This document shows positions 1-13,338 of a stretch of DNA of 64,000 nucleotides, one piece after another. The notes below the pieces were generated by a model that worked only from the letters and a program-made list of their open reading frames with translations, did no database searches and was not told where the DNA came from. Both the position numbers and the translations under genes were made by a program. Source of the DNA: an uncultured Candidatus Poseidoniales archaeon (lineage in GTDB: Archaea > Thermoplasmatota > Poseidoniia > Poseidoniales > Poseidoniaceae); contig CAJJAP010000004.1 in the NCBI GenBank assembly GCA_905182185.1, forward strand, positions 5,773-69,772. The letters are read 5' to 3'. The number at the start of each line of letters is the position of its first letter. The first letter of the stretch is position 1.

Positions 1-2056
1 TCTTTCCACCTAATGTAGAGTTACCTGCTTGTGTAGGACAGTCATCGAATAAGTCTGACCAGCCATCACCATCTTGGTCGATACAGCCTTGTTCGCCCAG
101 TGTTGAGTTACCTGCTACAGTCGGACAATCATCCAATACGTCGTCAATTGAGTCAGCATCGTCATCTAAGTCTTCATCACTATCACGGCAGCCATCACCA
201 TCTACATCTGTTGCTTGGTCTGAAACCCAAGTAGGTCTCGGTGGATTATATTCCGTCCATGGACATAAGTCATTTACATCATCGATTAGATCATTATCAT
301 CATCTGAATCTTCAGTATCATCCTTGCATCCATCATTATCCCAATCGGTTGAAGCGGATGGGTTGGCAGTATCTTGAGTGCTAGTCCAATTATATTCTCC
401 ACCACGGGGGCAATTATCAGGGAAATTATCTGTTAGTCCATCATTATCATCATCTGAATCACATGCATCTCCTTGACTATCAAAATCAGTATTTGCTTGT
501 ATAGGATTTGAATCGGAAGGGCAATTGTCGTTAATATCAGGAATCCCATCATTATCCATATCCTTCTTTGTTGCAGGGTCAAAGGCCCATAGGAATACAT
601 CATAACTTCCAGATGAAGTTACAGAATGTGTTCCTTTGGTAACAGTGCCGGAAAGTCCACCAGCAACAGTAACATATCAGACATGTTGACGCTCAAAGCG
701 AGACCCATTTCGTATCCTGCGCTTCCAGAAGTATCCAGCCAATCCCAAGTACCGGTGGAGCCTAAGCCACCCAATAAAATATCCTGATTACCTGTTGGAG
801 ATACGGTATTGCTACCCGCTGTGAAAGAACTGCTAATCGTTGTAGAAACAATAATTTCGCCAGTGGATAATAAAGCGACACCAGAGAATGAATCATTATT
901 CGAACTTCCTCCTGATGTAGCCCAACCATTACCGCTTACTGAATCCATAATTAAGAAAGCATCTCTATTTCCTTGACTTGCAGAAAGCGACCATCCTTGA
1001 CCTTGGAGAGTTCCACCAAATCCACCGACATAGTACATATTACCATTCATGTCTTCTGTAATACCAGTGATCAGTACTACCTCATTTGGCACACCATACC
1101 CAACCAATGTCACTATTGCCCCATTAGTATCGAGTTCTAAAAGAAACGAATCTGCGAATCCCACATTTGCATATAATTGTTGACCGAATGTAACTGCGTT
1201 TTGATTAATTCCAGCCAGAATGATTTGGCCGTTCATTGATGAATGTAAATCTAGAACACCTGTAGTTCCACTACCGCCACTAATCACCCAGATTAATTGA
1301 CCATTATTACCGTCATATTTTGCTACGTAAAGTGAAGGTAAAGCAGCATTTAGAATAGTTCCTCCGAAATCAGTATTACCATCAAATGATCCAGCAATAA
1401 CAATGTCTCCATTACACTCGACTTCAACTGCATCTACAGAACTTGTATTGTTATTTGTTCCAGTTGTTGCGTGGGAATGAGCCCACATAAAGTTTCCAAA
1501 TGGATCCGTTTTTGCTAGGTATCCATCGCCTGCTTGACTGGTAATCGTTTGGATTCCAAATTGTACTGAACCACTAAAAGAACCACCGATTACAGCTTCA
1601 CCGCCCATTCCAGCACCTACATCATAAACGAATGAATATCCATTGGAATGGTCTGCTGTAGCGACCCAATCCCAATCACCTGTGTCTGAAACTGAGCCTA
1701 AGAAAAATTCGCAATATCTACCTGCTAGTTGGGCGCAAGATGCGTGGTATGGACTAGTAGGATTGATAGTTGTTTGACCAAATGTTGCCACATATGATGT
1801 CGCAAATCCCAGCAACAATATTACCGTGACCAAAACCTGCCATAACCGAAGCATATTCAAACCAGTACCTACCTGCACTGGTCAAGTAATGATTTGCTTT
1901 TGCCCGACCAGAGACGGACAATAAAGTGATTTCTTCAAGTTGTTCAGATTCTTCTTCAACAATTTTCTCATCATACAATAAGATTGGAGTAAGTACTGAA
2001 AATAATAGAATCACAATTATACTGCGGGCAATTACACTTTGAGATAGACTACGCAT
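1..2056 (-). CDS. Secreted surface protein with beta-propeller-like repeats then thrombospondin type-3 (DxDxDG) Ca-binding repeats; frameshifted and running off the window edge
   Basis: ORFs 1754..2056 (signal-anchor N-terminus) and 619..1878 join through indels near 1810-1870. A frame change near 673 continues, by hand translation, as VTVAGGLSG...KDMDNDGIPDINDNCP...DWDNDGC...DQDGDGWSD to base 1. Confidence 0.75.
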
Positions 2057-2149
2057 ACATGGCGGTCATGCCAATAGGCAATCAATCCTTCCATCAATAG
2101 TGTCCCTTGCTTTCGCTAATTATATTGAAAATCTTCGGGCAAATATTGC

Positions 2150-2449
2150 TCATTCGATGTTATCATCGAGTGTTAACAAACTGCTATCGCCTGCATCTAC
2201 AACACATATGGTTGAAACTGAAAAAGGCTTACCACAAGCGACACCGAGTTCACGGTTTACTTGTGGTGTTCGGAACTTGGTGACCTCTGGATGTGATGCT
2301 TGAAGTGCATCAACATATTCAGTCGGGCAGTTTGCTGCAAGAATTATCAACTTTGCTTCACCACGTGTACAAGCATCAATGGTTTGACGTTGTCCAAATA
2401 GTAGTTTTCCAGTTGTATTTGCGTTTTTTAATTGTCGGCTTAGATCCAT
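2150..2449 (-). CDS. rpl30e: 50S ribosomal protein L30e
   Basis: TGKLLFGQRQT..AKLIILAANCP..ELGVACGKPFSVS (L7Ae/L30e family); GGAGG upstream of ATG 2449; canonical position after rpoA''. Confidence 0.93.
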   Translation of the reverse strand: MDLSRQLKNANTTGKLLFGQRQTIDACTRGEAKLIILAANCPTEYVDALQASHPEVTKFRTPQVNRELGVACGKPFSVSTICVVDAGDSSLLTLDDNIE

Positions 2450-2496
2450 TATATTATTCCTCCATTCTCCACATTTGTTTCTCATGGGGTGGAAAT

Positions 2497-4053
2497 TCAT
2501 TCAGGGATGTAGAACAGTTCTACACTACCAGTACCAAGTGAAATTGGTTGTCCTACGATGATGTTCTCTGCAACACCAGTGAGGTAATCTTTCTCACCGA
2601 TAATACCCGCCTTGAGCAAGTGGTTAACAGTAACTTCGAACGCAGCACGAGCAAGAATACTGTGCTTTGAACCGGATACACCATGACGACCAATTGCACG
2701 GACTTCACCTTCAGAAGTCATTACATCTGCAACCATCAATAAGTGACGTACATCGACTTCAAGACGGGCTCCGTCAAGAGTGTCTTGCAATTCGTTAATA
2801 ATCGCCTGTCGAGCTGCTTCAATACCAAGATAATTGTAAACTTCGAGAATGTTATTGGTATAGGTACGGGAGCGATCGATAGTTTCAAGTTCGCTTACAC
2901 GTTGAAGGTTTGAACCGATTGTAGAAAGATAATATTCCCCAGTTTTGTCATCCAATTGTACATTTGCTCGAAGGACATTAGGTATTCCCTTCAAACGCAT
3001 ATCTCTAATCTTCTCTTCTAATTGAAGGAGCATTGTATAGGATGGCGGGTTATCAGCAAGTTCTGCTAAATCTTCTGCACTATGAATACCAGGAATCAAT
3101 GTTAGAGTGGAAGGTTTCTTTTCCTTATCCGCTTGAACATAAAGCCTTGTAGCCCGTTCTAGTTTATCCTTAACTTCCAATTCAGTCATGCCCTTTTGCT
3201 TGAGCATGCCCTTATTCAATTTCAAAACTAATCTTCTTTGAGCAACGTCTGTTTCAAGAGAAGCAATGTTTACAGTCGTAGTTACTTCAATACCAGCAGC
3301 TAACTTCTTCGCTTCTTCTGCGGAGTGTTTCTTATCTCCTGCTAAACGAATTGTCATTGTTGGTGTTTGTGGAACCTTTCGTGCATCGACCACTTCAATA
3401 ATACGTGGAAGACCCATTGTAACGTTAATTGTAGCAACTCCCGCATAGTGGAAAGTACGCAGAGTCATCTGAGTACCCGGTTCACCAATTGATTGCGCTG
3501 TAATAATACCTGCTGCTTCATAAGGGTCAATACTTGCTCGCTCAAGTGCTATAATAGAACCGCTGATAACTTTCTTTGCCTGCGGCTTAGTTAGTTTATT
3601 CATCCCTCTATCATGAACTGCTTGTGTTAAGTCATGAAGAATTCGGTCATTAAAACGATCACTGCCTGCTGCTTCAACTGCACCAAGCAAGGACTTGAAG
3701 ACTGGGTCATCGGACAATGTATCTTCCAATGAAAGCAATTTCTTAGCACTATCATACGTTTCTAAGTCTGCTGCGATCTTAATTGTAGAGCGCTTCTTAG
3801 CCTTCTTCAGTTTGACATTTGTTACAGGACCGGTTGATTCGCTACCTTGGTCTTGTCCCTTCTTGGTCGCACCAATAATGATACCATGAATTGTGTCGCC
3901 AGTTTCAGAATCGGTTTCACAGATTTGAGCAATTTGTTGCGCTGTCAAAATCTTGACATCGTCCCATTTCCTGTCATCTGCCAGAGTATGTGCATAGTTA
4001 TCTGCAATACCCAAATCCATTAACTTCTTTTTGGTTGCACTCTTTACTACCAT
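2497..4053 (-). CDS. rpoA2: RNA polymerase subunit A'' (Rpo1C) with N-terminal extension
   Basis: AQSIGEPGTQMTLRTFHYAG, GLPRIIEVVDA, RHLLMVADVM, GVAENIIVGQ; 518 aa. Confidence 0.97.
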   Translation of the reverse strand: MVVKSATKKKLMDLGIADNYAHTLADDRKWDDVKILTAQQIAQICETDSETGDTIHGIIIGATKKGQDQGSESTGPVTNVKLKKAKKRSTIKIAADLETYDSAKKLLSLEDTLSDDPVFKSLLGAVEAAGSDRFNDRILHDLTQAVHDRGMNKLTKPQAKKVISGSIIALERASIDPYEAAGIITAQSIGEPGTQMTLRTFHYAGVATINVTMGLPRIIEVVDARKVPQTPTMTIRLAGDKKHSAEEAKKLAAGIEVTTTVNIASLETDVAQRRLVLKLNKGMLKQKGMTELEVKDKLERATRLYVQADKEKKPSTLTLIPGIHSAEDLAELADNPPSYTMLLQLEEKIRDMRLKGIPNVLRANVQLDDKTGEYYLSTIGSNLQRVSELETIDRSRTYTNNILEVYNYLGIEAARQAIINELQDTLDGARLEVDVRHLLMVADVMTSEGEVRAIGRHGVSGSKHSILARAAFEVTVNHLLKAGIIGEKDYLTGVAENIIVGQPISLGTGSVELFYIPE

Positions 4054-7000
4054 CAGCTCTCACCTCCATCATACTCAGATGCATCTTCCCATGCACCAAG
4101 ATCGTCTTCTGCTACTTCATGTTCAAAGGACTCTCTATCAACAAGAGTCTTTCCTTCAGTTCCAAGTGCATCATCGACAATTACATCAATGTTGAACGCA
4201 GAGCCGTGAACACCTCTTGAAGGGTCGATACCATCTTCACCATATGAGAATTGAATAATACGATTTGCAGTATTACGCACAGAGAACATATTATCGCTGG
4301 TAACCTTCAAGTCATCCATTGCGTTAATCAAACGGCGTTGCATATATCCAGACTTAGATGTACGAACCGCTGTATCTACCAGTGATTCTCTACCGGAAAC
4401 AGAGAGCATGAAAAACTCCGTTGGCCTTAATCCACGCTTGAAAGAAGAATCGATGAAACCTCTTTCACTAGCACCTCGACCTCCACGTTGGAAGTGAGGA
4501 AGAACACGGTCTAGGTATCCACGTTCTAGACGCTTACCACGAACCTTTGCTTGACCAATAGAACCTGCCATCATCGTCAAGTTGTCCATAGAACCACGAG
4601 CACCTGAAATAGCCATGTTAACCGCAGCGTTTGTAGAACCAGATTGGTTTAATTCATCCTTTGCAATATCTCCAGCAGTTTGCTTACCTTCATCCAACAT
4701 AACCATGATATTCTCTTCTAGAGTTTCACGGGTTGTACGACCAGGTCTGGTTTCGTAATTCTTTCCATCCTTACCAAACTTTTTAAGTTCTGAGTTTACT
4801 AATTGACGTGCATCTTCATTCGCTTGTTCAATAGCGCTCAATGCCTCAGCAGTCAAATCTTCATCATCAATACCTGTTGTAAATCCGAGAGATGTACAAG
4901 CTGCAATTGTTAATCGTGTGAATTCGTCCAAGAACTTAGCACCTAATTCAGGCCCTTTGGTCTGAACTATCTGGTCCAGTAGACGTCCGTCTTCAGCACC
5001 GATAGCACGCTTGTCTAGAGTTCCTGTGACCTTTCCATCTTTGACTATAACATCATCATTAGAACGACTGCGGAATCGAATATTGATATCGTCTGGAATA
5101 ATCAATGATATGAGATCCGTACCACGGAAAGAATCATTACCATTTTCATCCTTAACAATCTCAGGTAGTTCCCCTGTCCAGTCAATATTACCAAGCATCT
5201 CAAGTCCATGCTTAAAGGAAATAAGGGTACCTGGGCGTGTCAAAAGATAAGCACCGGAGATGTGATCGTGTATTCCACCGATAACCGCTCCACCATAACG
5301 AGGTGTTAGGATGTGCTCTTGTACTCTCATCAAAATATTAGCTTCTGCACGAGCCTCTTCGGATTGGATAATATGCAAGTTCATTTCGTCACCATCAAAA
5401 TCAGCGTTATATGGTGTACAAACCGCTAAGTTGAAACGGAAAGTACGACCTTCCATTACACGAACTTCGTGTACCATCATAGACATTCTGTGAAGAGAAG
5501 GTTGACGGTTGAAAATTACTACATCCCCATCTACTAAGTGACGTTCAACCAAAAGACCAGGCTTCGGGTTGCCGTTTCTATCAACGGTTGACAAACGATC
5601 TTCAACAAAGGTTCGGTCTCCCCATTCATCTTCAGGACTTCCACAATGTGGACAAGAGATGTTTAGGTGATCTGGAATTGGTTCCGGATGTACCTTATCA
5701 GATTGTGCCAGTTCCCACTTCCACCTGTTGTGAAGAACTGCGCGTGGGTCATCATCTTCAAGAGGATGTCCATCACGATCTTCACCACGAAGGTTAGCGA
5801 TAGTTGCTTCATCATCAACCACGTATTTTTCTTCAGCGATTGAACCATCGATTCCAAGAGAGGTTTCCTTGCGGATTACTAGACCTGGAAGGAAGTTAGG
5901 TGCATGAAGTACAGAATGTAGGTCAGGACGCAGGGTGTTTTCTGCACCGCTCTCACGGCATTCCGGGTTTCCACAGCGGTATCCAGCTTGCATTAGGCGG
6001 CTGCGTTGATTGATACGAACACGGCGACCGTCACCACGAATAATGTAGTTAACACCAGGGTGTACATCAGGTCCACGAAGAATCATATGTCGCATTTGCT
6101 CCTTGTTTCTTGTAGTAACACGGATTGGAACTGTTAATTCCTTAGCGGTTACCAATGGGACACCAACTTCGTTAACACTGAGGTATGGGTCTGGTGAGAT
6201 AACTGAACGTGCACAGAAGTTAACACGCTTACCGGATAGGTTAGAACGGAATCGCCCTTCCTTACCCTTCAAACGCTGTGTTAGAGTCTTCAGTGTACGA
6301 CCTGAACGATGACGTGCAGGAGGAATTCCTGCTGTTTGGTTATCGAAATAGGTAGTAATATGGTATTGTAGAAGTTCCCACAAATCCTCAACGATCAGTT
6401 GCGGAGCACCAGTATCACGGTTCTCTCTTAGACGCTGATTGATTCTCAATACATCGACTAACTTGTGCGTTAAATCGTCTTCTGAACGGTCACCGCTATC
6501 CAAAGTAATGGATGGGCGAACGGTGATTGGAGGAACTGGAAGAGCCTTTAGAACGATCCATTCTGGACGATTTAGCTTGTCCATACCAATGAAGATTAGA
6601 TGCTCGGAAGGAATACCACGAAGCCATTCTCTGACATCTCGTGGGTTGAGTTTCCTCTCAGTTTCCTTACCAGTACCTGCATTGTCAATTCTCTCTTTGA
6701 AAGTTGTTGGCTTGTCGAGCATAATCTTACCCTGTAAGTTGTCACAGTGCATACATTGCTTTCTCTTTACACCAGAAGTTACCTTCTCAACTTCTTTGAT
6801 AATCTTTGTAAACTCTGTTGAACCGACACCGTGCTTGGTGATGATATCACGAATTCTTGAACGGTAATAATCTTGCTCAGAATGCTCTACGTTAGTTGGA
6901 GAAGTTCCTGCTTCATCGTGCAGTAGAATCTTGTTACAATTGTTACATGTAGACTTCAAAGCGGTCTTGATCAAGTTTACGAAACCGATGTGTATAACCG

Positions 7001-7256
7001 GTAATTCCAGTTGAATATGCCCAAAGTGACCAGGTGATTCATCATACTTACAATTGTCAGTTGGACAAAGTAATCCCGGTTCGATTACACCCATGTGCGG
7101 GTCCATCAAACCTTGTTTGTATGCGTGTCCATCATCCTTGTATGTATCAGCAGTTTTGACCTCAACAGAAGACATCTTGCGTATTTCAATCGGGTCCATC
7201 AGTCCGAAGCGAATCAATGAGATTCGCTTAGGTATCATTATACTATTTTGGCTCAT
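4053..7256 (-). CDS. rpoA1: RNA polymerase subunit A' (Rpo1N) with large dock-region insertion
   Basis: Catalytic NADFDGDEMN, GHFGHI, FNRQPSLHRMS, LVDTAVRTSKSGYMQRRL; 1067 aa. Confidence 0.98.
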   Translation of the reverse strand: MSQNSIMIPKRISLIRFGLMDPIEIRKMSSVEVKTADTYKDDGHAYKQGLMDPHMGVIEPGLLCPTDNCKYDESPGHFGHIQLELPVIHIGFVNLIKTALKSTCNNCNKILLHDEAGTSPTNVEHSEQDYYRSRIRDIITKHGVGSTEFTKIIKEVEKVTSGVKRKQCMHCDNLQGKIMLDKPTTFKERIDNAGTGKETERKLNPRDVREWLRGIPSEHLIFIGMDKLNRPEWIVLKALPVPPITVRPSITLDSGDRSEDDLTHKLVDVLRINQRLRENRDTGAPQLIVEDLWELLQYHITTYFDNQTAGIPPARHRSGRTLKTLTQRLKGKEGRFRSNLSGKRVNFCARSVISPDPYLSVNEVGVPLVTAKELTVPIRVTTRNKEQMRHMILRGPDVHPGVNYIIRGDGRRVRINQRSRLMQAGYRCGNPECRESGAENTLRPDLHSVLHAPNFLPGLVIRKETSLGIDGSIAEEKYVVDDEATIANLRGEDRDGHPLEDDDPRAVLHNRWKWELAQSDKVHPEPIPDHLNISCPHCGSPEDEWGDRTFVEDRLSTVDRNGNPKPGLLVERHLVDGDVVIFNRQPSLHRMSMMVHEVRVMEGRTFRFNLAVCTPYNADFDGDEMNLHIIQSEEARAEANILMRVQEHILTPRYGGAVIGGIHDHISGAYLLTRPGTLISFKHGLEMLGNIDWTGELPEIVKDENGNDSFRGTDLISLIIPDDINIRFRSRSNDDVIVKDGKVTGTLDKRAIGAEDGRLLDQIVQTKGPELGAKFLDEFTRLTIAACTSLGFTTGIDDEDLTAEALSAIEQANEDARQLVNSELKKFGKDGKNYETRPGRTTRETLEENIMVMLDEGKQTAGDIAKDELNQSGSTNAAVNMAISGARGSMDNLTMMAGSIGQAKVRGKRLERGYLDRVLPHFQRGGRGASERGFIDSSFKRGLRPTEFFMLSVSGRESLVDTAVRTSKSGYMQRRLINAMDDLKVTSDNMFSVRNTANRIIQFSYGEDGIDPSRGVHGSAFNIDVIVDDALGTEGKTLVDRESFEHEVAEDDLGAWEDASEYDGGES

Positions 7257-10200
7257 CTTTGGTCCTCCAGTTCGAGACGCATGGCCACACCTAAACTCTT
7301 CATTTCGTCTAGTAGCAGCTTGAATGCATATGATGTTTGTACTTTGTAAACTTCAGCTCCATCACCATGTATAGGGCTGACGTATGTCCTACGTTTTGGA
7401 TCGTACCAAGCGATGTGACCGGATTCGGCACAAACATACATCTCAATACCATCTGATTCATCGAGTAGACGGTCTTTGATAACCATTGAAGCACCGTGTG
7501 CAATCAAACAATCACGTTCCATCTCACCAAATCGCAGACCTCCTTGGCGTGCACGACCTTCGGTCGGCTGACGTGTTAGAATTTGAACACGGCCACGAGA
7601 ACGAGCGTGTATCTTGGAAGATACAAGATGGTGAAGGCGTTGGTAGAAAATACAACCTACGAAGATATCAGCAGGGTATTCTTCTCCTGTTTCTCCATTG
7701 ATCATCAATTCACGGCCAGTGTGGTTTAGACCATTACGGACTAATCCATCACGTAGGCTGGATTCTTTTTCTCCACGGAAAGCAGTACCGTCAACACGGC
7801 GTCCTTCCATAGCTCCAACCTTGCCACCAATCATTTCCAATACGTGCGCAACTGTCATTCGTGACGGAATAGCGTGCGGATTAATGATTAGATCTGGGAC
7901 TACTCCATCAACTGTGAATGGCATGTCTTCAGATTCTACAAGGCGTCCAATAACTCCCTTCTGTCCGTGACGACTTGCAAATTTGTCACCGACTTCAGGA
8001 ATCTTTTGGCTACGAACCATTACACGAACGAGTCGACCAGAATCTAAAGATTCAGTAACATATACATTGTCAACCCAACCTTTCTCACCATGACGAACTA
8101 GCATAGAGGATTCTCTACGCTCTTGAGCAGTAAGGAATGCTCCACCTGTTGATTCTTCTAAGAATCTAGGAGGGCTGGTCTTACCAACGAGGACATCGCC
8201 ACCGGTCAATTCGATTTCAGGCATAGGCAAACCGTCATCTTCTAGATGATTATATGCCTCAGGTGCCTTCATTCCCTTTACTTCTTGTAGAGATGAACCT
8301 GGCTTCTCAATCAATTCTTCTTGACCACCTGGGAATCTTCTTCGTTCAGCATTGTAAGTTCTGTTAAATGTTGAACGTCCTAGAGCTCGGTCTACAGAGC
8401 CCTTGTTCATAATAACAGCGTCTTGCATGTTGTATCCGTGAAGAGACATAATAGCAACGATGTAATTTTGACCACCTGGACGGTCGTCGAAATTTGTTGT
8501 TGTCATTGCACGTGTACGTGTGATCGAACGATGAGGGTAGTGCAAAATATGCGCACGTGTGTCTGGACGTAGACGGTAGTTCGAACTAGGAAGACCTAGA
8601 GATTGCTTAACCATTGCAGTTCCACCAGTAACACGAGGTGTTGAGTTGTGTTCTGGGTAAGGAATCAATGAAGCACATACTCCATGAATCAATTGTGGAT
8701 CAATTTCAACGTGGGTATGTTCTTCTGTATACAATAATGGTACCATCAAAGTTGCTTCTTCCCATGAACCGTTTGGCATGCGAACACGAGCGAGTAATTC
8801 TGCTTCATTGGAGCCTGGGACTCCGAGATTTACCCACTTGATTTCTTCATTGGTTACCAATCTGCCCTTTAGTGGGCCATCTTCAACCATTTCTGGAGTG
8901 ATGAATGGACGAGGTGCAATATACAAATCTTCTTCTTCTTCTGCGTCAACCCATTCAACGATTCCTTCGTTAACCAATTCCTTGAATGACATCTTACCTG
9001 TGCGGAGAGATTCCAAATGTTCGTTGGTTAGACGTGGTGTACCATCGTATAGAATTAACAGAGGCCTTAGGATGCGGCCTTTGTCAGTATTGATGAAAAT
9101 ATCATTATTATCTTTATCGAATCTAATGGATACTTCTGCTGGGATAACACCACGGCGTCGTGCAGATTTGAAGTGTCTAACTAAGTTTGCACCACGCTTG
9201 TGTACACCGTAAATGTCACCATTCACGTGAATTCTGTCACCACTGGTCCAGTCATCAGGCTGAACAACATCTAGTTCATCAAGACGCTCACGAACTTCGG
9301 TCTCATCGATGTTCTCTGAGATATCGATCATTTGAGCTGCGTTCTTTACCAAACCACAGTTTTGACCTTCCGGTGTCTCATTTGGACATAGGCGGCCCCA
9401 TTGTGTTGGATGCAGGTCACGTGCTTCGAAGTGAGGTTGGCTTCGAACAAGTGGAGAAGTTACACGGCGCATGTGAGATAGTGCTGCTAGGTATGTTGTA
9501 CGGTCTAGAAGTTGTGAAACACCAGAACGTCCACCAACCCAGTTTCCTGTAGCCAATGCGTGCATAATCTTAGAGGTTAGAACATCTGGACGAAGGCAAG
9601 ATGTAATTTTCAATTCTCGCTTGCGATTGTGATGACGTTCAAGTTGGTACTTCAAGTCACGAGCAAGTTGCCCAGATGAAACACGGAATAAATCTTCAAT
9701 CAAGTCACCTGCAAGACGAACACGCTTGTTTGCATAGTGGTCCTTGTCGTTTGGTTCACGGTCGGTCATTGCCATTTCTAACACTTGACGGACGATTCTT
9801 CCAAGGAAGATAGCCTTCTTCTTTCGATCTTCTGTTTGGTCGCCCAAGTGAGGAAGAAGTTCTCTATCCAATAGTTGGTTAACACGTGCTTCTCGGTATT
9901 CGCGTTGTTGTCCTGCAGCGAATTTCTTCTGAAGCCATTCGTGTGATTCCAAGGTATTGTTGACAGCATACTCTTCGTTGTCGTTTACTTCGTTGATATT
10001 TGCAACGATATACTTGAAAGTCTCTGTTGGTCCTGCGATAGCTTGGAACACTTCTTGGTCATTTTCAATTCCTAGTGCACGCATTAGCATTACTACAGGA
10101 ATTGGTGTTGTTCCCACAGTACTAATCTTAACCATCAGCATTCCATCACGGCGCTTTTCAACAGTTAGTGGCTTTCTCATACCATCTTTCTGTGAGAAAA

Positions 10201-10870
10201 TCTTAGCAACTTCAGTCTTCTTTACCGAACGCTTATTGATTTCAACAGTAACTCTGTTAGGTGCTAAATCTTCCATTGAGATCAGAACTCGTTCTGTTCC
10301 GTTGATAATGAAATAGCCACCTGGGTCTAGGGGGTCTTCTCCCTTCTTGCGCAACAAGTCCTTCCATAGGTCAGCGTCTTCGCCAGAAGTTACAGGGTCT
10401 AGCACTCGGTCGCTGATGATGTGCTCTGGATGTAGATTACATCTGCGAGAGCGGATCATGATAGGCATGCTTCCAACTTGAACACTTTCTTCAAGAGGAG
10501 ATGGTATTCCACTACGATAGATTTGGAAATCGATTGAAACCGGAGACATGTATGTCAACTTTCTCAAACGGCATTCCATTGGAGTAGACTCCATATTTGC
10601 ACCATTTGCTTCACGAATTGTTGGCTTTCCAAGTTTGATGTCTTTCAAACGAATAACGATTTCTTGGTCAACTACGTCGAGTTTGATGTATCCACCTTCA
10701 TCATCATTGATTTCCTCGTCGGTTCCGACGCGGATATTACGGATGATTTTCTCCATACGTGATATTGTGCTGTCTCCCGCAGGAATACAGTCATTATATG
10801 ACGCCAATTGATGATTCACTAAGCTGCGCTCTTTGAAAAATGATTGAATTATTTCTTGCATAATAGACAC
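7253..10870 (-). CDS. rpoB: RNA polymerase subunit B (unsplit Rpo2)
   Basis: GDKFASRHGQKG, NPHAIPSRMT, RFGEMERDC, CPNETPEGQNCGL; single 1205-aa ORF. Confidence 0.98.
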   Translation of the reverse strand: MSIMQEIIQSFFKERSLVNHQLASYNDCIPAGDSTISRMEKIIRNIRVGTDEEINDDEGGYIKLDVVDQEIVIRLKDIKLGKPTIREANGANMESTPMECRLRKLTYMSPVSIDFQIYRSGIPSPLEESVQVGSMPIMIRSRRCNLHPEHIISDRVLDPVTSGEDADLWKDLLRKKGEDPLDPGGYFIINGTERVLISMEDLAPNRVTVEINKRSVKKTEVAKIFSQKDGMRKPLTVEKRRDGMLMVKISTVGTTPIPVVMLMRALGIENDQEVFQAIAGPTETFKYIVANINEVNDNEEYAVNNTLESHEWLQKKFAAGQQREYREARVNQLLDRELLPHLGDQTEDRKKKAIFLGRIVRQVLEMAMTDREPNDKDHYANKRVRLAGDLIEDLFRVSSGQLARDLKYQLERHHNRKRELKITSCLRPDVLTSKIMHALATGNWVGGRSGVSQLLDRTTYLAALSHMRRVTSPLVRSQPHFEARDLHPTQWGRLCPNETPEGQNCGLVKNAAQMIDISENIDETEVRERLDELDVVQPDDWTSGDRIHVNGDIYGVHKRGANLVRHFKSARRRGVIPAEVSIRFDKDNNDIFINTDKGRILRPLLILYDGTPRLTNEHLESLRTGKMSFKELVNEGIVEWVDAEEEEDLYIAPRPFITPEMVEDGPLKGRLVTNEEIKWVNLGVPGSNEAELLARVRMPNGSWEEATLMVPLLYTEEHTHVEIDPQLIHGVCASLIPYPEHNSTPRVTGGTAMVKQSLGLPSSNYRLRPDTRAHILHYPHRSITRTRAMTTTNFDDRPGGQNYIVAIMSLHGYNMQDAVIMNKGSVDRALGRSTFNRTYNAERRRFPGGQEELIEKPGSSLQEVKGMKAPEAYNHLEDDGLPMPEIELTGGDVLVGKTSPPRFLEESTGGAFLTAQERRESSMLVRHGEKGWVDNVYVTESLDSGRLVRVMVRSQKIPEVGDKFASRHGQKGVIGRLVESEDMPFTVDGVVPDLIINPHAIPSRMTVAHVLEMIGGKVGAMEGRRVDGTAFRGEKESSLRDGLVRNGLNHTGRELMINGETGEEYPADIFVGCIFYQRLHHLVSSKIHARSRGRVQILTRQPTEGRARQGGLRFGEMERDCLIAHGASMVIKDRLLDESDGIEMYVCAESGHIAWYDPKRRTYVSPIHGDGAEVYKVQTSYAFKLLLDEMKSLGVAMRLELEDQR

Positions 10871-10876
10871 CTCCCC

Positions 10877-11527
10877 TCAGTTACCCTCTACGATCAGACG
10901 GTATGCAACAGACTTACCAGCCGACGGGGATCGGCGGATAACTTTGATAACGCGGTCGGCAATCCAACCAGCAGGAAGTGGTGTATGGTCTGCATCTGCA
11001 GCCAAGTCGGCCATGTCTCCAATTTCAGCGGTTTCTTTAATCGCTTGAACAGCAGGGTCGGAAATCAAAATCTTTGGGAGAAGTTCTTTTGCTAGGCGAG
11101 GCATTTCTGTTTCCTCATCCATTTCAACGATGTCCCAAGGTGCGAGATGTTCGCTTTCTACTGCGAATTGTTCCTCGGCCGAAATATTTGCTTTGCCAAC
11201 TAATTCTTGGTGAGGCACTAATTCGTGATTTAGTGCATTGAATCTAGAAGTGATTTCTGGTCGGTCGAAATCATCAACGGTTTTTGCTCGAATTGTAATC
11301 TTCTTGCTTTTCTTTGCTGCCCTGCGTCGAGAACCTTGTTCTGCAATAACAGACATTACATTGGTAAATTGCTCAGAATCTTTGGAAACACCCAATACTG
11401 CAGCGATCTCATCAGAAGAAAGACCTTTGATGTCTGTCATGTTTCTGTCAGTCGCTAGTTTGTGGGCGAACTCTTCGGAGACTCCCAGTTCCATCAATCG
11501 CTTCTTTGTTGCGCTCTTTACTACCAT
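10877..11527 (-). CDS. rpoH: RNA polymerase subunit H (Rpo5) with about 90-aa N-terminal extension
   Basis: HELVPHQEL..LPKILISDPAVQAI..VIKVIRRSPSAGKSVAYRLIV; first gene of the rpo operon. Start placed at MVVKS by similarity to the RpoA'' N-terminus. Confidence 0.88.
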   Translation of the reverse strand: MVVKSATKKRLMELGVSEEFAHKLATDRNMTDIKGLSSDEIAAVLGVSKDSEQFTNVMSVIAEQGSRRRAAKKSKKITIRAKTVDDFDRPEITSRFNALNHELVPHQELVGKANISAEEQFAVESEHLAPWDIVEMDEETEMPRLAKELLPKILISDPAVQAIKETAEIGDMADLAADADHTPLPAGWIADRVIKVIRRSPSAGKSVAYRLIVEGN

Positions 11528-11576
11528 GTCAAAGTCCCCGTACCCAGTTTGCACCCTTGCCTGCCACCCTTTCAGG

Positions 11577-11650
11577 CGGGCCTGACGGGGTTCGAACCCG
11601 CGACCATCGGATTAAAAGTCCGACGCTCTACCTGACTGAGCTACAGGCCC
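11577..11650 (-). tRNA. tRNA-Lys (UUU)
   Basis: Reverse complement GGGCCTGTAGCTCAGTCAGGTAGAGCGTCGGA-CTTTTAA-TCCGATGGTCGCGGGTTCGAACCCCGTCAGGCCCG folds as a cloverleaf; CCA not encoded; no intron. Confidence 0.96.
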
Positions 11651-11692
11651 AAAGTAGCAACTTGGGCTTTACGGCCGACTTGCAAACTGCTC

Positions 11693-11698
11693 TTATAA
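11693..11698. promoter_or_regulatory. Candidate TATA box (palindromic TTATAA) between divergent tRNA-Lys and methyltransferase/birA
   Basis: TTATAA about 43 nt upstream of the mature tRNA 5' end; judged on position only. Confidence 0.3.
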
Positions 11699-11847
11699 CT
11701 TGCGGAGGGGGGGAATAGCGCCTCGCATCGCGAAGCTCGCTCCCAGAAGTGGCTTGGAGTTGGGCGAATATCGCCATCTAAGCCGCTGGGTGCATTTTGT
11801 GTTACAAGTGGACAGCCATAAAGGCTTCGTCCTATGACCGTCTCGGC

Positions 11848-13338
11848 ATGGTCATGGCGGACGAGAAACCCTTCAATATTGCTAGCGCCGAGCAAGAAAT
11901 CGACCGCTTGAATCGGCCAATAAAATCGGTGATTTGGCAAGCTCCGAAGGGTGAATCATTCACCCTCAGCATACCCCCAACTGTCTACCCCCCTAGAGAA
12001 GATACTGACCTTCTTGCTAATGCCATTGTTAGGATCGGTGCTGGACGTGGAAAAAGATGTCTTGAAATCGGTTGTGGCAGTGGAGCATTGTCCTTATTGG
12101 CCGCTAGACAGGGATGGAAGGTAAAGGCCTGCGACATCAACCCCTTTGCGGTGATGGCATCCCGACATTCTGCTAAAATTGCAGATATTGACCTTGACAT
12201 TCGAGAAGGCGGCCCAGGACCTAAAGAAGATGGTGAAATAAATCAGTGGTCCGGCCAAGAACTACACGACCTAATCATCTGGAACTTACCATATCTCGAA
12301 TTACCGAGTTCTAGCGATGAGGTTCTAGGGCCGTTTGAAGAAGCCGCATTACTAGATACGGATTCAATTGGACTTGTTTCCCGCCTAGTAAAATTGATAT
12401 CAACTGGAAAGTTGATGACCCCTTCTGGAATGGCCCTAATTCTGGTTTCAAATAATCAAAGAGGGAACGATACGAAAAGAATCTGTCTTCAAAATGGTCT
12501 ATCATGCCGTGAATTTTCCAGTAAACAATTTGATGATGGTGAGGAATTAACTGTATATTCGATTTGGCTGCCATTCTCAAATTGCCCAGTTAGCACACAT
12601 GATGAAATTGAATCGACAAACAAAGTATTGCTCGATAACGAAGGACAAATAGGAACCTCCATTAAAGCAAAAAGGCAACTTGAAGGAAAAGGTAGGCGTG
12701 GACGTAATTGGACTAGTGAAACAATTTCATTTGCAGGCTCCTGGATTGTCCACGATGGAAAAGGCGAACTGGTTCACTCAGACCTACAATTGGTTGGCGG
12801 ACTTGCTGTTGTTGATGCCATTAGAGCAATTTCAAATAGGGAGTGCAGTAACCGGATTAGACTCAAATGGCCGAACGACATCCTATTGAAAAATGAATCT
12901 TCTGAATGGGCCAAGGTATCTGGAGTATTATTAGAAGGTAGAAGCATTGCTTCCGAAATAAGATTAGTTCTTGGAATCGGAGTTAATATTTATTCTGCAG
13001 AGCCACTAGAAAAGCAAGATTTCAAAATTGCAACTCTCAATCAAAGTCTTGATTTGGATATTAATTTCGGACAATTTTCATCGGTGATTAGTGCGGCCTT
13101 ATCCTCACTGCTAGAACAAAAGATCAACATCCCAAATTTTCCATCCAATAAATTACTTAAAATCACTTTAGAAGAAATTAACAGTACTGTTCTTTCACTG
13201 GGCAACCCAATCTATAGAACAGATAGTTGTCAAGTTGTTGGATTAGATGAAAAGGGCCAACTACAAGTAAAAACGACTTCGGGAGAATTACTGAATCTAG
13301 ACGAAGGTGAAGATTTAATTTGGCCAAAATATAATTGA
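11848..13338 (+). CDS. birA: Fusion of HemK/PrmC-like SAM methyltransferase and biotin--protein ligase
   Basis: N-half VYPPREDT, LEIGCGSG, IWNLPY; C-half IESTN, GKGRRGRNW, LKWPNDI, KVSGVLLE, LGIGVN. Start uncertain (11797, 11848 or 11854). Confidence 0.85.
   Translation: MVMADEKPFNIASAEQEIDRLNRPIKSVIWQAPKGESFTLSIPPTVYPPREDTDLLANAIVRIGAGRGKRCLEIGCGSGALSLLAARQGWKVKACDINPFAVMASRHSAKIADIDLDIREGGPGPKEDGEINQWSGQELHDLIIWNLPYLELPSSSDEVLGPFEEAALLDTDSIGLVSRLVKLISTGKLMTPSGMALILVSNNQRGNDTKRICLQNGLSCREFSSKQFDDGEELTVYSIWLPFSNCPVSTHDEIESTNKVLLDNEGQIGTSIKAKRQLEGKGRRGRNWTSETISFAGSWIVHDGKGELVHSDLQLVGGLAVVDAIRAISNRECSNRIRLKWPNDILLKNESSEWAKVSGVLLEGRSIASEIRLVLGIGVNIYSAEPLEKQDFKIATLNQSLDLDINFGQFSSVISAALSSLLEQKINIPNFPSNKLLKITLEEINSTVLSLGNPIYRTDSCQVVGLDEKGQLQVKTTSGELLNLDEGEDLIWPKYN

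Follow-up and report, generated by a model that had tools for sequence, protein, structure and literature searches.

Why do two different subunits of one RNA polymerase begin with the same small domain? This question is raised by the RNA polymerase operon in a 64,000-nucleotide stretch of DNA (hereafter the window) from an uncultured Candidatus Poseidoniales (Marine Group II) archaeon of the family Poseidoniaceae. In this operon rpoH (11527..10877, minus strand; a translation of 216 amino acids, aa) and rpoA'' (4053..2497, minus strand; 518 aa) encode proteins that both open with MVVKSATKK and carry long N-terminal extensions, each headed by a copy of one module of about 60 residues. We lean somewhat towards a reading in which these modules would serve as tethered DNA handles at the lower jaw of the polymerase, the copy on RpoH having arisen by duplication of the one on RpoA''.

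RpoH and RpoA'' share an N-terminal module

A hand count gives 24 identical residues among the first 42 of RpoH and RpoA'', the figure reported in the initial annotation of this locus, and BLASTP aligns residues 1–61 of the two proteins at 46% identity (E 2e-13). According to Pfam and NCBIfam, the canonical parts of the subunits cover residues ~97–214 of RpoH and 136–514 of RpoA'', and the extensions are therefore ~95 and ~135 aa long. In both proteins the module comprises residues 1–62, encoded at 11342..11527 (RpoH) and 3868..4053 (RpoA'') on the minus strand. The RpoH module is a predicted five-helix domain resembling a tandem helix-hairpin-helix, or (HhH)2, fold, as judged from AlphaFold2, Foldseek and its conservation across the order; BLASTP, the phylogeny and hhalign identify the RpoA'' module as its paralogue. 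When the extensions were scanned alone against Pfam and NCBIfam, they returned only sub-threshold noise (Sigma70_r4_2 at 17.5 bits, and CusF).

Behind the module, both proteins have a stretch rich in Lys and Arg (SRRRAAKKSKKITIRAK in RpoH, VKLKKAKKRSTIK in RpoA''). The RpoH linker (aa ~63–96, EQGSRRRAAKKSKKITIRAKTVDDFDRPEITSR; 11240..11341, minus strand) is basic, with a net charge of +6, and is predicted to be flexible by its low scores in the predicted local distance difference test (pLDDT). The linker of RpoA'' (aa ~63–135; 3649..3867, minus strand) is Lys/Arg-rich in its proximal part and precedes the TIGR02389 match. These basic stretches, together with the disorder seen in the model, agree with the earlier description of a Lys/Arg-rich linker behind each module. 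Across 21 genomes the net charge of the linker ranges from +1 to +6 in RpoH, the window having the highest value, and from 0 to +9 in RpoA''.

Behind the extensions, both subunits are complete. The canonical Rpo5/RpoH core (aa ~97–216 with the stop codon; 10877..11239, minus strand) contains the Rpb5 C-terminal assembly domain (PF01191, 34.1 bits against a cut-off of 23.5, residues 143–212) and the motifs FNxLNHxLVPH (from aa 96) and YRLIVEG, and is modeled with a pLDDT of about 90. Its score against the NCBIfam equivalog NF007129 is 42 bits, below the cut-off of 83, because of lineage-specific insertions in the core; the PF01191 and NF007129 matches both lie within residues 143–214. Compared with the order's other family, Poseidoniaceae have two insertions in the Rpo5 core, one of ~9 aa after HQELVG and one of ~10 aa before PLPAGW. 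With 216 aa and a 95-aa extension, RpoH departs from the single-domain form of this subunit (~75–90 aa, no N-terminal extension). The canonical part of RpoA'' (aa 136–518 with the stop codon; 2497..3648, minus strand) matches TIGR02389 over residues 136–514 with 423.6 bits (cut-off 420.65), as expected of a full-length A''.

The extensions are coding sequence with conserved starts

A search with the RpoH module recovered two copies in each of 106 Poseidoniales genomes, which represent both families of the order; in every genome the module heads one open frame of ~200–250 aa and one of ~520 aa. The extensions could still be an annotation artefact, with the true starts lying downstream (for example at Met12 of RpoH or at a Met inside A''), in which case the similarity ahead of them would be non-coding or leader sequence. 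Some public gene calls do present a 205-aa RpoH that begins at Met12, and the initial annotation had itself named downstream starts as a finding that would overturn its proposal. However, all 21 genomes compared, from 18 genera, have a start codon (ATG, GTG or TTG) for residue 1 at the same position. The ATG of A'' overlaps the stop codon of rpoA' and has GGAGGTG or GGGGGTG 7–9 nucleotides upstream, while the rpoH start is preceded by a G-rich element at a distance of 7–12 nucleotides (GGAGGTG/GGGG-type elements at 7–12 nucleotides over both genes). Residues 1–11 are nearly invariant across the order while the codons that specify them vary. A start at Met12 would also cut through helix 1 of the module, and a confident fold is predicted only with residues 1–65 included.

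Selection on the module points the same way. Between orthologues, the proportion of differing nonsynonymous sites (pN) is 0.02–0.18 against 0.53–0.87 for synonymous sites (pS), and the ratio of the corresponding substitution rates (dN/dS) is ~0.03–0.07 where it can be estimated. Both extensions are real coding sequence under strong purifying selection. Given the conserved start codons and ribosome-binding sites, we reject downstream starts, and an artefactual origin of the extensions is barely credible.

Relationship and origin of the two copies

The likeness of the two copies had been attributed, tentatively, to homogenisation by gene conversion, and the first codons of the two genes had been described as nearly identical in DNA. 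The latter description does not hold. Over codons 1–47 in the window, the two genes are 57% identical in nucleotides, and different codons specify 15 of the 24 shared residues; over codons 2–12, pS between H and A'' is 0.81 and pN is 0.057. The apparent likeness of the first codons at the DNA level therefore reflects constraint on the amino acids.

Ongoing gene conversion (concerted evolution) between the H and A'' copies would account for the identity of the first nine residues within a genome. It is contradicted by the paired phylogeny: in a maximum-likelihood tree of 42 modules from both families, the H copies and the A'' copies form separate, reciprocal clades with support of 100/99. Diagnostic residues tell the copies apart throughout the order, H being fixed for KKR..E..NM and A'' for KKK..D..KW. 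H and A'' are 48% identical when taken from one genome and 49% when taken from different genomes, and the paralogues are saturated at synonymous sites (pS 0.86). Taken together, the phylogeny, the identities and the saturation lead us to discard the proposal, and we consider it extremely improbable that conversion keeps the copies alike.

When the tree was rooted with A'' modules from outside the Poseidoniales, the H and A'' copies of the order formed one clade (98/98). In the history that we propose, the A'' copy would be ancestral, since HhH-type domains at the A'' N-terminus appear to be old and widespread in Thermoplasmatota. The A'' module would then have been duplicated onto RpoH, once, in the stem of the Poseidoniales, and the two copies would have evolved apart under strong purifying selection, with no gene conversion. 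An apparent third copy of the module in one genome (G056) turned out to be a duplicated A'' fragment present on two contigs.

Predicted fold of the module and its tether

An AlphaFold2 model of the module, built on an alignment of 61 sequences, contains five helices (residues 5–14, 18–24, 30–34, 38–45 and 52–64) with a mean pLDDT of 87. In the model of full-length RpoH, pLDDT is ~86 over the module, falls to ~50 over residues 66–100 (about 49–56 in the linker) and returns to ~90 in the Rpo5 core. As modeled, RpoH would thus consist of a domain on a disordered tether of ~35 aa, followed by the core.

Foldseek searches against the PDB placed (HhH)2 domains at the top, namely FANCM/FAAP24 (template modeling score, TM, 0.71) and the C-terminal half of UvrC (TM 0.67), both with a probability of 0.97; the next matches were RAD51 paralogues, XPF and RadA's N-terminal domain. 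The first hairpin agrees with LxxLGhxxxxAxxL, the HhH pattern, and the predicted structure displays the two HhH motifs and five helices that characterize an (HhH)2 domain. The earlier view of a duplicated, HhH-like helical module is supported by both the predicted helices and these fold matches.

Several results weigh against the assignment. The Foldseek E-values are 0.35 or worse and thus not significant, and SAM domains also occur among the matches; non-significant E-values are usual for domains of 60 aa. No HhH family model recognizes the module: hmmscan with the Pfam HHH family models found no match to the window modules up to E 10, and hhalign comparison with HHH_5 units from other A'' extensions gave a probability of only 37% (E 3.5e-4). 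The second of the hairpin glycines is lost in the A'' copy of Poseidoniaceae, which reads CETD. A search of PDB sequences with the module profile returned only a designed repeat protein, through a spurious repeated match, and a Foldseek search of BFVD viral structures gave nothing convincing. For the modeled domain, assignment to (HhH)2 is sound at the level of the fold.

N-termini of RpoA'' and RpoH across the Thermoplasmatota

The RpoH-module search found no copies in other families of the same class. With hmmsearch, the module profile gave weak matches at RpoA'' N-termini in further families of the Thermoplasmatota; the one in genome G200, for instance, has E 1.9e-5. We regard the remaining weak matches as noise: a primase-like protein in G360, an acetyltransferase-like open reading frame (ORF) in G212 and a membrane-like small ORF, G200 C32. 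For the A'' subunit itself, we scanned 300 Thermoplasmatota genomes with TIGR02389 and read 20 of the A'' frames. Throughout the phylum these frames are mostly 460–930 aa long, compared with ~380–400 aa for a canonical A''. Among the 20 frames read, those of several families, including f3, a sister family within the class, start with MA[RK]KDTxxALxxRG[IV]xxxAxxL... followed by a basic linker; those of other families are headed by canonical HhH repeat arrays, and those of a few families are canonical.

The Poseidoniales module and the MA[RK]KDT group were aligned by hhalign with a probability of 94.9% (E 4.4e-8) over 42 columns, of which ~21% are identical. On the basis of this profile homology over ~45 aa we define a Thermoplasmatota RpoA'' N-terminal module group, to which the window module belongs. 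Homologous modules are carried by the 483-aa RpoA'' of Ca. Methanomassiliicoccus intestinalis and by its homologue in M. luminyensis, also 483 aa long. Among eight A'' extensions scanned with Pfam, the two repeat-bearing families, f11 and f40, contain HHH_5 at 105.6 and 79.4 bits (cut-off 27), and the f11 extension additionally passes RNA_pol_A_CTD (PF03118) with 25.6 bits against a cut-off of 23.8. Families f29, f33 and f19 show the same A'' repeat pattern by eye.

RpoH, by comparison, is canonical elsewhere in the phylum, with stop-to-stop open frames of mostly 80–157 aa in which the full profile is covered. Longer RpoH frames in family f30 (two long ones that could be read, and one of 151 aa) are canonical RpoH with a spurious upstream frame, the G+C content being high by eye. 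A profile search of genome contigs recovered only close Poseidoniaceae RpoH loci. The RpoH copy is thus unique to Poseidoniales, and an HhH-type extension at the A'' N-terminus is very common in Thermoplasmatota. The initial annotation had stated that neither subunit normally has the module. For RpoH this stands, as canonical Rpo5 lacks it both in the frames of other Thermoplasmatota and according to PMC3906176; for RpoA'' it does not, in view of the HhH-type extensions found across the phylum.

Other kinds of A'' N-terminus were also observed. The A'' proteins of Thermoplasmatales-like and Aciduliprofundum-like genomes (L153 (G317), L159 and L166) have a different, beta-rich N-terminal domain of ~100 aa (LLWRD...ITINKKNFTYHVVISGVRKY), for which Pfam gave no match; among the 20 frames read, this domain occurs in three families. 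A segment that appears related by eye (GFIWTAPD.../GVIWSLPDG...) lies inside the 350–450-aa A'' extensions of f3, f12 and f20 and is internal in L154, L156 and L160. In L155 (G164, family f17), a low-complexity, very Lys-rich extension of ~100 aa (KKKDKKHQVKKITVKPQHKHK...) takes the place of a folded module.

The module recurs on virus-like elements

Among 1.84 billion representative sequences, the module profile matched only 205 proteins at E<=0.001. Beyond fragments of RpoH and A'', these include dozens of proteins of 110–1292 aa that share a nearly unchanged start, MVVKSATKKKLMDxG..AHxLAxDRKWDDVK, and then diverge completely. The module is placed differently in two cases, being C-terminal in one protein and internal in an AAA_15/AAA_21 ATPase. 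Apart from this ATPase, found in P0212/P0278, the tails of the module proteins belong to no family in PHROGs or Pfam, and the longest, P0195 (1292 aa), matched nothing among PDB sequences. In a poorly resolved tree, most element modules fall among the A''-type copies and two in the H clade.

The contigs that carry these proteins (7–30 kb) consist of tightly packed, largely co-directional orphan ORFs. Identifiable genes encode a Holliday-junction resolvase, helicases, a Cas4-like nuclease, a thymidylate-synthase-like protein and transcription factor B (TFB). The TFB genes on L134 (7074-8027) and L135 (8319-9266) match phrog_20431 (E 9e-58) and have an Hjc-type resolvase, a Cas4-like nuclease and XPD/DEAD-type helicases as neighbors. 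Their products are 50–56% identical to chromosomal Poseidoniales TFB and 22–28% identical to known archaeal-virus TFBs, from which we conclude that the elements belong to Poseidoniales hosts. No capsid gene was seen in the parts of the module-bearing contigs examined, and the elements may be either viruses or plasmids. A scan of IMG/VR with the module produced 97 pattern matches, none of which was confirmed, and tblastn with the module found no match in GenBank phage records. The combination of the module with a host-type TFB provides a sequence marker that ties uncultured mobile elements to Poseidoniales hosts.

Two groups of module proteins have recognizable features behind or around the module. 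P0209, P0220, P0225, P0199 and P0210 (210–225 aa) combine it with repeated F/YRGLGSLF motifs, end in ...GLGSLFG and belong to no known family. P0212/P0278 (851 aa; on JGI contigs of 8–9.5 kb) carry an H-type module (KKR..E..NM) at residues 93–146, together with C2H2 zinc fingers and the OLD/Abi-type AAA_15/AAA_21 ATPase; they may be defence or anti-defence proteins that use the polymerase module.

Possible roles of the paired modules

What could two such modules contribute to a polymerase? In Pfam Rpb1 domain 5, the break between A' and A'' comes at position 66. On the domain map of Pol II we take this position to be where the 'foot' begins, a part of the 'shelf' module to which the Rpb5 assembly domain also belongs. 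The two tethers would accordingly emerge near each other, beneath the downstream DNA channel. Subunit H is tightly bound to A'' and, in the preinitiation complex, cross-links to downstream DNA at +10 to +20 (PMC2847245).

In the DNA-handle reading, to which we incline, the polymerase would carry two flexibly tethered (HhH)2-like domains of ~60 aa, at the N-termini of A'' and H, and both tethers would exit at the shelf/lower-jaw region, where H binds A''. Together with their Lys/Arg-rich linkers, the modules would act as non-sequence-specific handles on double-stranded DNA. They would keep the enzyme on downstream or flanking DNA and could thereby serve open-complex stability, processivity or salt tolerance. 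Since sister lineages have canonical DNA-binding HHH_5 arrays at this place in A'', the most likely arrangement seems to be two DNA handles without sequence specificity. The same surface may in addition offer specific docking, to a shared partner or between one module and the other. Such docking is suggested by the near-invariance of residues 1–35 and their reuse on unrelated element proteins, and we infer that the module probably doubles as a docking surface.

A number of points speak against a generic DNA-binding role. Here, DNA binding is read from the predicted fold and its position, and the placement of the A'' N-terminus at the foot/shelf is a reading of the Pfam split and the Pol II domain map. 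The module itself has a net charge of -3 to +1, with basic residues only in the N-terminal arm and the linker. Residues 1–35 are conserved far beyond the needs of the fold, and it is exactly this part that the elements retain; such strictness in the element proteins is easier to reconcile with a specific protein partner than with generic DNA binding. The best structural matches, moreover, are (HhH)2 domains that act as heterodimers.

These points lead to an alternative that we regard as possible, if on the unlikely side, namely that the module is primarily a protein–protein docking handle. The H and A'' modules would pair with each other in the manner of XPF–ERCC1 and FANCM–FAAP24, or share one host factor; element proteins with an A''-type module would plug into the same site and so reach or disable the host polymerase, and DNA contact would be secondary. 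The (HhH)2 domains of FANCM/FAAP24 and XPF, which are among the best fold matches, are obligate dimers. Residues 1–35 are near-invariant in H, in A'' and in dozens of unrelated orphan proteins, while the A'' modules of other lineages share the fold at only the low identity given above. The module is not basic, and the host-derived TFB on the same contigs points to interference with transcription. Against docking as the primary role, any candidate partner is only hypothetical, and the canonical DNA-binding HHH_5 arrays that sister lineages carry at this A'' position argue for DNA as the ligand there. The two roles can also coexist, as they do in the C-terminal domain of the bacterial alpha subunit (alpha-CTD).

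A further alternative, which we hold to be somewhat more doubtful, treats the module as an 'address tag'. The H and A'' modules would pair or bind one hub at the lower jaw of the polymerase, and the elements, which also have a TFB of their own, would have copied the A''-type tag onto dozens of different effectors in order to dock on the polymerase and hijack it. If this were true, it would amount to a modular, tag-based hijacking of the host polymerase with no described archaeal counterpart. That virus-like elements share the module suggests that they may manipulate the host polymerase in a new way.

Comparison with known polymerase appendages

Considered as domain accretion on RNA polymerase, the twin modules would be analogous to the alpha-CTD, the Rpb5 jaw and Rpo13. 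The alpha-CTD (PF03118) is likewise small, helical and of (HhH)2 type, and each polymerase has two of them on flexible linkers, an architecture that the two tethered modules echo. In bacteria it both binds DNA (UP elements) and docks regulators, a dual role that matches the evidence presented here, and one sister-lineage A'' extension, that of f11, barely passes its Pfam model. The alpha-CTD, however, is C-terminal, comes from two copies of one subunit and lies on the upstream side, whereas the present modules are N-terminal, sit on A'' and H and would lie on the downstream/lower-jaw side. The window modules do not match PF03118, and the likeness is one of analogy only.

The jaw of eukaryotic Rpb5 (PF03871) resembles the RpoH extension in being an extra domain on the N-terminal side of the assembly domain conserved in Rpb5/H. 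The Pol II jaw touches downstream DNA and several regulators; the archaeal polymerases studied lack this contact. The elongation complex of Pyrococcus furiosus has no Rpb5–DNA contact (bioRxiv 2024.01.05.574147), because archaeal H has no N-terminal domain; the absence of an N-terminal extension from archaeal H is stated in PMC2847245 and PMC3906176. The jaw differs from the module in fold, shares no sequence match with it and would be of independent origin. It is also rigidly packed on the assembly domain, whereas the Poseidoniales module is predicted to sit on a disordered linker of ~35 aa.

Rpo13 of Sulfolobales/Desulfurococcales is a lineage-specific, small helical add-on that adjoins the N-terminal part of Rpo5/H and has a Lys-rich flexible tail facing downstream DNA (PMC2675907; PMC13257274). 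Rpo13 and the Rpb5 jaw occupy a site that adjoins Rpo5 and faces downstream DNA (PMC2675907). Rpo13 differs in being a separate subunit with a helix-turn-helix core and one copy, compared with a fused (HhH)2-like domain in two copies here. If our favored reading is right, the Poseidoniales modules would provide a third independent downstream-DNA or regulator contact beside H, after the Rpb5 jaw and the crenarchaeal Rpo13. We know of no report that Rpo13 is shared with viral proteins.

Among DNA-binding domains, the closest comparison is with the (HhH)2 domains of HHH_5 type, which include the N-terminal domain of RadA/Rad51, XPF/ERCC1, FANCM/FAAP24, the UvrC C-terminus and the repeats of topoisomerase V. 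They have the same five-helix architecture as predicted for the module, which is in register with their LxxLGhxxxxAxxL pattern; they provide its best Foldseek matches, and HHH_5 arrays stand at the same A'' position in other Thermoplasmatota. The module differs in lying beyond the reach of the Pfam HHH models and of a convincing hhalign score, in having the second Gly of its first hairpin replaced, and in bearing an extra, invariant N-terminal arm (MVVKSATKK).

To our knowledge, no Marine Group II archaeon has been cultured and the transcription machinery of the group is unstudied. We found no published description of the H or A'' module among open-access papers and bioRxiv preprints, and papers on Poseidoniales viruses do not mention it. 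The accessible part of a 2026 survey of archaeal polymerase subunits (Rpo6, Rpo8; PMC13257274) describes no H or A'' extension. What is new here is the history of the A'' module across the phylum, its homologue in Methanomassiliicoccus, the outgroup rooting and the host link based on TFB. Methanomassiliicoccus luminyensis is cultured. The presence of the A'' module in this species and in related methanogens thus makes its role testable in a named, sequenced organism or with recombinant proteins.

Gene layout of the operon

The operon occupies the minus strand within positions 1–12000 of the window, in the order tRNA-Lys / rpoH / rpoB / rpoA' / rpoA''. Between rpoH and rpoA' lies rpoB (7253..10870, minus strand; 1205 aa). 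It is followed by rpoA' (4053..7256, minus strand), whose stop codon overlaps the start of rpoA'' (TGATG) and whose 3' end contains the GGAGGTG ribosome-binding site. The RpoA' protein is 1067 aa long, compared with ~880 aa usually, and its match to Pfam Rpb1 domain 2 is divided into two stretches, with a large unmatched gap before aa 565 (about aa 340–565). Directly upstream of rpoH, ARAGORN identifies a tRNA-Lys(TTT) gene (11575..11650, minus strand), which sets the 5' limit of rpoH.

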